A stretch of 64,000 bases of DNA from assembly GCF_018977255.1 (NCBI RefSeq), contig NW_024704755.1, forward strand, positions 620,001-684,000, in the 5' to 3' direction. The notes under the pieces were generated by a model. The model ran no database searches. It was not told the origin of the DNA and was given only the letters and a program-made list of their open reading frames with translations. This stretch comes from Callorhinchus milii. Lineage: Eukaryota. Both the position numbers and the translations under genes were made by a program. Below, in pieces: positions 3,901-5,790 of this stretch; position 1 is the first letter of the stretch; each line of letters begins with the position of its first letter.

Positions 3901-4864
3901 GAAGTGTCGGTACTCTATGCCAAGCAAATCATTCCAAGGTCACATTTGAGAACGCGTTCTTTGAGGAACTCGGTACTGCAGTGCACTGCACTGGAACTCC
4001 AACCCACTGAGAGAGCATCACATGTGTATCCCTGTGGGTATTGTGAGTTTGATTTGACAGCCTCGGCGGTGAAGATGCAGTTCATACCGTGCGGATGCAG
4101 ATCAGATTATACAGATGCATTCAAGAGGAAACTAGAACTTCACGTGAGGGAGAAGGAAAATGTAGATGGGTGTGGGAGGGAGGGAGGGAGGGAGGGAGGA
4201 GGAGTGGAGACTTCTGTGGATTATAAGCACTGTTATAGACTGGTAGGAGAGAGTTTCGGAGCTGTACATTAATGTGGGATGTCTTCCCTATGTGACAGGC
4301 AATATACAAATATAATTTGTTGTTGTTCGTCAATCTTTGAGCAGATCGCGAGCCCCCAGGCCCTACTTCCATCCTAAAAGTTACAAAAGTTCAGTTTGTA
4401 AACAAAATAATATTTTATGAATAGCTTTAAGGATCTTGAAAAATAAAGTTTGGGGGTAAAAGTGGCAATAAATATATATATATATATATATATAGGCTTG
4501 ACACGGAGGGCAAGAGTGAGTGCCTGTGTTCATGTCCGTCATTTGCTCCGAGAAGTAAGAGAAACCATTACAAAAGTGACTGTCCGTATTGTTCTCAAGT
4601 CACCACCTGCAGTTCCAGCCGATGGCACTGGTCCCCGGAGCCCGAGGCTCAGACCCCCGGGGTCGGCATTGCGCTCTGAGCCGATTATTCAGGTCGACTG
4701 CGATCGCCCCGCAGTGACCCGTCACTGTTACCCGCAGTGGGTGGTGTGTGCGGTGTTCAGGTTTTCTTACCTGCAAAGGCTCCCCCGGGACTCCACCACA
4801 CCAGCAGCGCGCACAGCAGGTGTGCGGACACACTGCGGACTGACATGCCGGTGCGGACTGACAT
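904..4864 (-). CDS. Type-B carboxylesterase (CES2/CES3-like), first five coding exons; gene continues beyond the window start
   Basis: Exons 4864-4771 (signal peptide [31 protein letters not shown]), 3343-3139 ([26 protein letters not shown]), 2843-2702 (EDCLYLN), 2185-2052 ([19 protein letters not shown]) and 1057-904 ([14 protein letters not shown], catalytic Ser). All junctions are GT-AG with consistent phases. Confidence 0.95.
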
Positions 4865-5404
4865 GCCGGTGCCGGTGCGGGCTGACAGGTCGGTGCGGGC
4901 TGACAGGTCGGTGCGGGCTGACAGGTCGGTGCGGACTGACAGGTCGGTGCGGACTGACAGGTCGGTGCGGGCTGACAGGTCGGTGCGGGCTGACAGGTCG
5001 GTGCGGACTGACAGGTCGGTGCGGGCTGACAGGTCGGTGCCGGTGCGGACTGACAGGTCGGTGCGGGCTGACAGGTCGGTGCGGGCTGACAGGTCGGTGC
5101 GGACTGACAGGTCGGTGCGGACTGACAGGTCGGTGCGGACTGACAGGTCGGTGCGGGCTGACTGGCCGGTGCCGGTGCGGACTGACAGGTCGGTGCGGTC
5201 TGACTGGTCGGTGCGGGCTGACAGGTCGGTGCCGGTGCGGACTGACAGGTCGGTGCGGTCTGACTGGTCGGTGCGGGCTGACAGGTCGGTGCGGGCTGAC
5301 AGGTCGGTGCGGGCTGACTGGTCGGTGCCGGTGCGGGCTGACTGGCCGGTGCGGGCTGACAGGTCGGTGCGGGCTGACAGGTCGGTGCGGACTGACAGGT
5401 CGGT
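4835..5404 (-). repeat. 18-bp GC-rich minisatellite (30 units plus five 6-bp inserts) overlapping the CES start codon
   Basis: Minus-strand unit ACCGACCTGTCAG(C/T)CCGC; the last two units read ACCGGCATGTCAGTCCGC and contain the ATGs at 4864 and 4846. Confidence 0.95.
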
Positions 5405-5409
5405 GCGGG

Positions 5410-5790
5410 TTTTAGTTGTTTGCACTTTCCGAGAATCAAAGCAATGTAAAGGATCAGTTTCTGAACCGCCCCCAAGTGAACCCGGAAGGTTCCGCCCGGT
5501 GACGGCCAACAAACAGCGGCTCTTGAACTGAGCGAAAGGGAAGACTTCCTTCGACCGGGAATCCGCAATATGTGTTTGAGAAAATTGCACAATTTCGGGG
5601 CAGTCACCGACCTCCGCAGCACCGGTCAGTGACTGAGGATCCGCGGCCACTGCTTTTATTGGGTGAGACCTCCTGTCAGTTGACAATCACATTCCGCTGA
5701 CGCTGCGGGAGACGGGGACGGGGATAGCAATCCGCACAGTGTGGCCCACGGACTTCAGTCTCTGGGGCTGAAGATGGCTGATCCAAGTGC
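5410..5790 (-). promoter_or_regulatory. CpG-rich putative CES promoter
   Basis: CpG-dense stretch immediately upstream of CES exon 1, with ETS-like CCGGAAG (~5481) and CCAAT/ATAAAA on the minus strand (~5653-5663). Confidence 0.5.

Follow-up and report, generated by a model that had tools for sequence, protein, structure and literature searches.

A carboxylesterase gene in the window (the whole 64,000-nucleotide stretch of Callorhinchus milii DNA analyzed here) has at its start a minisatellite whose 18-base unit is the translation start context of the gene itself. As an earlier note on this DNA had proposed, unit parsing and spliced contigs bear out an array of 30 such units at the start of a real, spliced carboxylesterase; the codon at unit positions 7 to 9 is CTG in 23 units, CAG in 5, and ATG in the last 2 only. 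The reading that we favor, to which we give about an even chance, is a start-codon minisatellite that lies partly inside the leader, is predicted to supply leaky in-frame starts, and is tolerated by the gene without having been selected.

The carboxylesterase is intact, spliced, and of type B (PF00135). All four exon pieces matched PF00135 (COesterase) at E<0.001, three of them above the curated cut-off, and exon 2 is 100% identical to Callorhinchus milii XP_007906068.2, a carboxylesterase of 583 residues whose alignment places the remaining exons to the left of the window. The catalytic Ser-Glu-His triad is present (GESAG at 232, NNHEFG at 352, and SDHGDD at 465, aligned with relatives), and the protein ends in HSDL, which is near but not identical to the ER-retrieval motif HXEL. 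Exon 1 encodes a single hydrophobic stretch (mean hydropathy of 2.3) positioned as the signal peptides of relatives are, and the splice from 4771 to 3343 was found in RNA contigs of three of the four runs examined, from two studies. Four database proteins are split over the start codon, two beginning at the first ATG (4864; among them XP_007906068.2) and two, V9KMB8 and A0A4W3J297, at the second (4846). In two of the four database versions, the signal peptide is also longer by a 3-residue insertion (WWLWW), at approximately 4790 to 4810, an in-frame length difference between records. Farther along the minus strand, an exon of the upstream gene lies at 15069 to 15260 (proteins P0071 and P0072). 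Two stingray carboxylesterase models begin with a peptide nearly identical to this exon, which suggests that the models are fused or reflect read-through and that rays share this gene order.

Read on the minus strand from 5404 to 4835, the array parses without remainder into units and 6-bp inserts, and TRF reported a period of 18, 30.3 copies, and a score of 698. A 24-base unit pattern has 23 exact matches in the genome (992 Mb), every one of them inside the array, which makes it a single-locus repeat. The order of the units reflects block duplications that carried a hexamer along, and all five inserts are this one hexamer; they are therefore not five independent frame-keeping events. Within the array, the 23 in-frame CTGs are the only near-cognate codons, and the +4 base is T, never G, at every one of them. 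The signal-peptide codons at 4820 to 4834, right after the array, look like a decayed unit junction minus two bases, so the CTG unit may derive from there and not from a point change of the ATG. The plus strand of the array carries 23 copies of CTGACAG, in line with the roughly 23 given before; we take the TGACAG within them to be a MEIS/TGIF-type site.

Features of the carboxylesterase start region, with positions in the window
Positions	Strand	Feature	Basis
901..3343	-	Exons 2 to 5, at about 3137-3343, 2700-2841, 2052-2183, and 901-1062	PF00135, tblastn of P0005, splice joints
4600..5760	.	CpG island containing the array; GC 0.65, CpG observed/expected 0.92 (window 0.48)	
4771..4864	-	Coding part of exon 1; signal-peptide-like N-terminus and splice donor	
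4835..5404	-	Minisatellite; 30 units of 18 bp and five identical 6-bp inserts, six unit types	Unit parsing, TRF
4844..4864	-	Two in-frame ATGs (4864 and 4846), in units 29 and 30	
4886..5398	-	23 in-frame CTG codons (CGAC-CTG-T), 8 to 178 codons ahead of the first ATG	
5380..7222	+	Likely divergent transcript; X6 contig 5380-5773, then 7164	RNA contig
5405..5686	-	Single-copy flank; 94 open codons in the esterase frame, RNA contigs over the flank	
5628..5660	-	TATA-like octamer at 5660-5653 (one mismatch) and Inr-like motif 30 bases downstream, +1 at 5630	Predicted
5687..5692	-	In-frame ATG-TGA start-stop; sole minus-strand ATG between 5775 and 4865	

Just as had been described, no stop interrupts the esterase frame between 5686 and the donor at 4771, a run of 305 codons, and no ATG occurs in it before 4864. 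As a sign of design, this in-frame arrangement found no support. Five of the six frames are stop-free through the array, and shuffling the 18-base unit leaves a named frame without a stop in 93% of cases, so the open frame is no evidence of function; moreover, all five arrays with a 3n period in 724 kb of the contig have five or six open frames. The 94 open codons of the flank arise by chance in 10% of dinucleotide shuffles, and an HMMER search of 1.8 billion proteins returned no credible relative of the flank frame. Five HMMER matches to this 93-residue frame were rejected as summed weak matches to unrelated repeat proteins, and a DUF7840 match on the repeat frame was rejected as below the cut-off. 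ATGs in the flank number one on the esterase strand compared to 4.2 expected (P of 0.03) and two on the plus strand compared to 4.5 expected (P of 0.10).

Selection on the encoded TDLSxR peptide likewise found no support. Exon 1 of the neighboring carboxylesterase paralog, 10 kb farther along, is ordinary and has no such array. None of 94 related proteins checked carries TDLSxR, the sole match among longer proteins (7,997 candidates scored) is the gene itself, and neither the array nor the extension is conserved in sharks and rays. All four variable columns of the unit fall at codon positions 1 and 2 and none at third positions, which runs opposite to coding constraint, although the numbers are small. 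Zero of five changes at third positions has a P of approximately 0.13 under random placement, which gives no sign of selection but is compatible with it.

Tandem repeats have been reported to flank start sites very commonly (PMC9331589). Of the 19 minisatellites in 724 kb of the contig, 10 are located at CpG islands, which were called after masking the repeats and which, with the 300 bases on either side, make up 7% of the bases; seen from the islands, 10 of 39 carry a minisatellite. Amplification of whatever occupies the 5' end of a gene is common here, and this time the start codon was included. At 16551 to 16654, a promoter module, a 30-base unit with CCAAT-box and ETS-like motifs, is repeated 3.5 times directly before the ATG of the next gene, which by eye we take to be CIAO2B/FAM96B; Pfam returned no family for this piece. 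At 36785 to 37419, a 23-base unit containing CACGTG, presumably an E-box, is repeated 29 times away from the called CpG islands. Three arrays (G000:C14:914085, 999084, and 1070671) share one common 41-base unit, two of them inverted, and so form a dispersed minisatellite family. Among other features of the window, an exon at 19132 to 19656 on the plus strand looks small GTPase-like by eye and is presumably of the RGK family (RRAD-like); here, too, Pfam gave no family.

An untranscribed array, the outcome that the earlier note had set against its own proposal, is not what we observed, as RNA contigs enter the array at both ends. No run is recorded as RNA, and the RNA status of X5, X6, and X8 was read from their splice joints; X8 and X6 are RNA at the carboxylesterase because their contigs join across introns. 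Over the flank, which is single-copy from 5410 to 5915, contigs run from 5400 up to 5748 in X8, 5773 in X6, and 5651 in X9 (two studies), each entering the array by exactly 20 bases, as does the DNA run X1. This 20-base entry is the computed k=31 graph break, which requires that the same 30-mer from 5157, 5025, or 4971 be present in the reads, if the alleles match the window. On the other side, the spliced esterase contig of X6 ends at 4902, the break computed for RNA reaching at least to 4922; the full-length reference array predicts a break at 4900 instead. In X5 and X8, the spliced contigs end at 4885 and 4887, about 20 bases above the first ATG, and do not reach the computed break (4900 to 4902). 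Alleles one unit shorter would give 32 or 38 bases compared to the 35 and 37 seen in X5 and X8, with no exact match, and these ends may be true starts just above the ATGs. Run X15 left exon 1 uncovered. No RNA contig spans the array, and the contigs carry no strand or start information. The array is thus at least partly transcribed, with coverage of its interior deduced from the contig break points, and since RNA enters both ends, units are likely present in some esterase messages.

Several other measures of transcription were set aside. Contig depths (155 and 68 over the flank versus 1,206 and 666 over the esterase, in X8 and X6, respectively) cannot rank parts of the gene and were discarded. 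The far ends of the flank contigs at 5748 (X8) and 5651 (X9) differ within one study and provide no evidence of a start. Word shares of 0.20 in X8 and 0.26 in X6 fit the exons and flank without the array interior but were dropped, as DNA runs also miss about a fifth. A common retroposon breaking the contigs beyond 5750 was considered and rejected, as no second copy was found by a search that skips very common words. The accessible part of the elephant-shark full-length cDNA paper (PMC3466250) does not mention the carboxylesterase gene.

Signals for the direction of this transcription point both ways. The sole TATA-like octamer between 4600 and 5920, and with it the sole pairing with an Inr motif, lies on the esterase strand, with both motifs as commonly defined, an arrangement reached in 1 to 6% of shuffles in a test chosen after viewing the sequence. 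From this pair, at 5660 and 5630, an esterase leader of 766 bases without an AUG is predicted. A possible but doubtful alternative to a long leader is a two-way CpG-island promoter, in which the esterase starts in the last few units, the flank RNA is a divergent, decayed ANKAR-like transcript, and few or no CUGs are ever scanned. The ends of the X5 and X8 esterase contigs agree with such low starts, as do 12 TCAGT and 16 Inr-like motifs on the esterase strand of the array, compared to none on the other. For the flank, the plus strand has a donor-like site at 5663 and no AATAAA, and the minus strand has an AATAAA at 5660. The X6 flank contig, furthermore, continues at 7164 into a plus-strand exon remnant (7164 to 7222) that is preceded by a pyrimidine tract and AG, has a canonical plus-strand donor at its end, and aligns weakly, but in order, with ANKAR-like proteins, and hence some or all of the flank RNA may be antisense. 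Against this alternative, the joint between 5773 and 7164 was seen in only one of three RNA runs and reads AT..AG on the plus strand, with AT and not GT on its left (GT..TT on the minus strand); it could reflect a variant donor, an allele with a deletion, or template switching. The plus strand lacks any Inr-like motif within the array and any TATA-like site between 4600 and 5920, the one TATA-like/Inr pair faces the esterase, and the break at which the X6 esterase contig ends requires the RNA to contain further units. Esterase-sense and plus-strand transcripts may both exist. The wider region from 7164 to 12412 on the plus strand holds a 5'-truncated ANKAR-like remnant of four exons, two with in-frame stops; the further exons with in-frame stops lie at 8733 to 12412.

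How much the CUGs matter depends on their strength. In a mammalian reporter table, CGAC-CUG-U scored 5.1 and CGAC-CUG-G 45.8 relative to CACC-AUG-G at 100, and a CUG in the GGC context of the ATG units would score 4.3 (PMC5778536); because of this last value, the GAC context shows no real tuning. The purine at -3, which the earlier note had pointed out, finds no support as good context, given that the +4 base matters about 10-fold and is U here, yet a value of 5.1 out of 100 cannot be neglected across 23 copies. With 1 to 5.1% initiation per site, the predicted share of scanning ribosomes captured is 21 to 70% for 23 sites, 6 to 27% for 6 sites, and 2 to 10% for 2 sites, where the cumulative values are predictions from mammalian data and, for the full set, apply to full-length leaders. 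The array and leader fold no better than shuffles (z of +1.49; 19 of 20 shuffles fold at least as well), and without a stable fold, scanning would not be blocked. The predicted extensions are polar and charge-neutral, with 8 to 178 residues, and at the upper rate about half of the ribosomes would make extensions of more than 60 residues. SRP has been reported to lose competence near 130 residues (PMC8745203). Extensions of more than 60 residues would probably be mistargeted, and short ones would be removed with the signal peptide. The cost of such mistargeting suggests either that transcription of most mRNAs begins low in the array or that the actual rate falls below this.

The central proposal of the earlier note, a selected, length-variable ladder of CUGs that tunes esterase output or gives (TDLSxR)n-extended, differently localized isoforms, appears improbable to us. 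Consistent with it, the array holds no near-cognates other than the in-frame CUGs, the leader from 5630 has no AUG, the lack of folding leaves scanning unhindered, and ATG is kept in just the last 2 of 30 units, as expected under purging of upstream AUGs. Divergent end units are, however, a common trait of minisatellites. Precedents also exist: an upstream in-frame ATG adds 64 residues to human CES2 (PMC5818367), and C1QL signal peptides become anchors when translation begins at upstream AUUs (bioRxiv 10.1101/2024.02.16.580719). Against selection, one homogenized base change to G at +4 would have brought a 9-fold gain, yet U stands there in all 23 copies; synonymous bias, shark or ray conservation, and stable downstream structure are absent, and the base rate of such arrays is high. 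Most human non-AUG extensions likewise carry no signs of selection (PMC9789052). A stronger version, in which the array acts as a dial of dose and location, is to be judged just as unlikely. There, most mRNAs would start near 5630, 23 equal CUGs would divert half or more of the ribosomes, and array length would set the balance between ER enzyme and (TDLSxR)n-extended protein elsewhere, by leaky scanning alone. Finally, action at the DNA level, with a TGACAG multimer or core-promoter elements tuning transcription by copy number, is very improbable: the 23 TGACAG copies on the plus strand are repeated because the unit is repeated, which is no enrichment, and although human VNTRs show an enrichment at CpG islands, with some of them correlating with expression (PMC8096271), the comparable TYMS 5' untranslated region (UTR) VNTR showed <1.5-fold allelic imbalance in vivo in one study (PMC4504634).

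The tolerated start-codon minisatellite accounts for these observations as follows. The array likely arose within a CpG island, by replication slippage on the 18 bases that surround the esterase start codon, and a share of esterase mRNAs likely include it in their 5' leaders. Long leaders would start in the sense direction near 5630 or higher, and other transcripts would begin low in the array. The array is able to persist since its amplified unit lacks a stop, brings no upstream AUG, and keeps the frame. The 23 in-frame CUGs are predicted to leak weak early starts, which the gene probably tolerates; short extensions would be cut off with the signal peptide to leave a normal enzyme, and those longer than roughly 70 residues would tend not to be targeted to the ER. 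The main effect would then be some loss of output from long-leader mRNAs and not a set of useful isoforms. The high base rate, the lack of a selection trace on the peptide, and RNA at both array ends argue for this reading; the X5 and X8 stops at 4885 and 4887, the ANKAR-like joint, and the two of four proteins beginning at the second ATG argue against it.

Even as a by-product, the array constitutes a natural experiment, in which one AUG and its signal peptide are preceded by 23 CUGs in identical context and at fixed spacing. It allows one to ask directly whether the effects of weak starts accumulate in the way that the scanning model predicts and how long an extension a signal peptide tolerates. 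If copy number varies and alters output, it would be a case of repeat polymorphism acting on the choice of translation start. In open-access text, we found no direct example of such an effect; nor did we find a paper that deals with this locus or with any repeat built from the start-codon context.

Set against known classes, the array is a minisatellite, with head-to-tail units in the 10- to 100-base range at one locus. It resembles a non-AUG extension in having in-frame near-cognates upstream and no stop before the AUG but has neither strong context (+4 G) nor downstream structure, and it is neither a conserved non-AUG extension, as it lacks coding-type conservation, nor a RAN repeat, as it is no structured short expansion. 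In its predicted action, it would combine a 5' leader VNTR with a non-AUG extension ahead of a signal peptide. The human TYMS 5' UTR repeat (PMC4504634) and the MXRA7 5' UTR VNTR (PMC8096271) are, like this array, GC-rich tandem repeats at the start of CpG-island genes and at least partly in RNA. Here, in contrast, the unit is the start-codon context and every CTG is an in-frame candidate start. Human CES2 (PMC5818367) belongs to the same enzyme family and likewise has an optional extension before its signal peptide, but it uses one AUG without a repeat. The repeats of RAN translation (C9orf72, FMR1, and ATXN8OS) also lie in or near a leader with near-cognate starts; they are structured expansions of 3 to 6 bases, whereas the array has an 18-base unit, folds no better than shuffles, and brings its own CUG in most units. 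The NPR CUG/AUG and C1QL AUU proteoforms (bioRxiv 10.1101/2024.02.16.580719) share with the array an in-frame upstream near-cognate start before a signal peptide. Those starts, however, are single, conserved, and tested, with good context and downstream structure, whereas the array presents a 23-fold, unconserved ladder of candidates with U at +4 and no structure.
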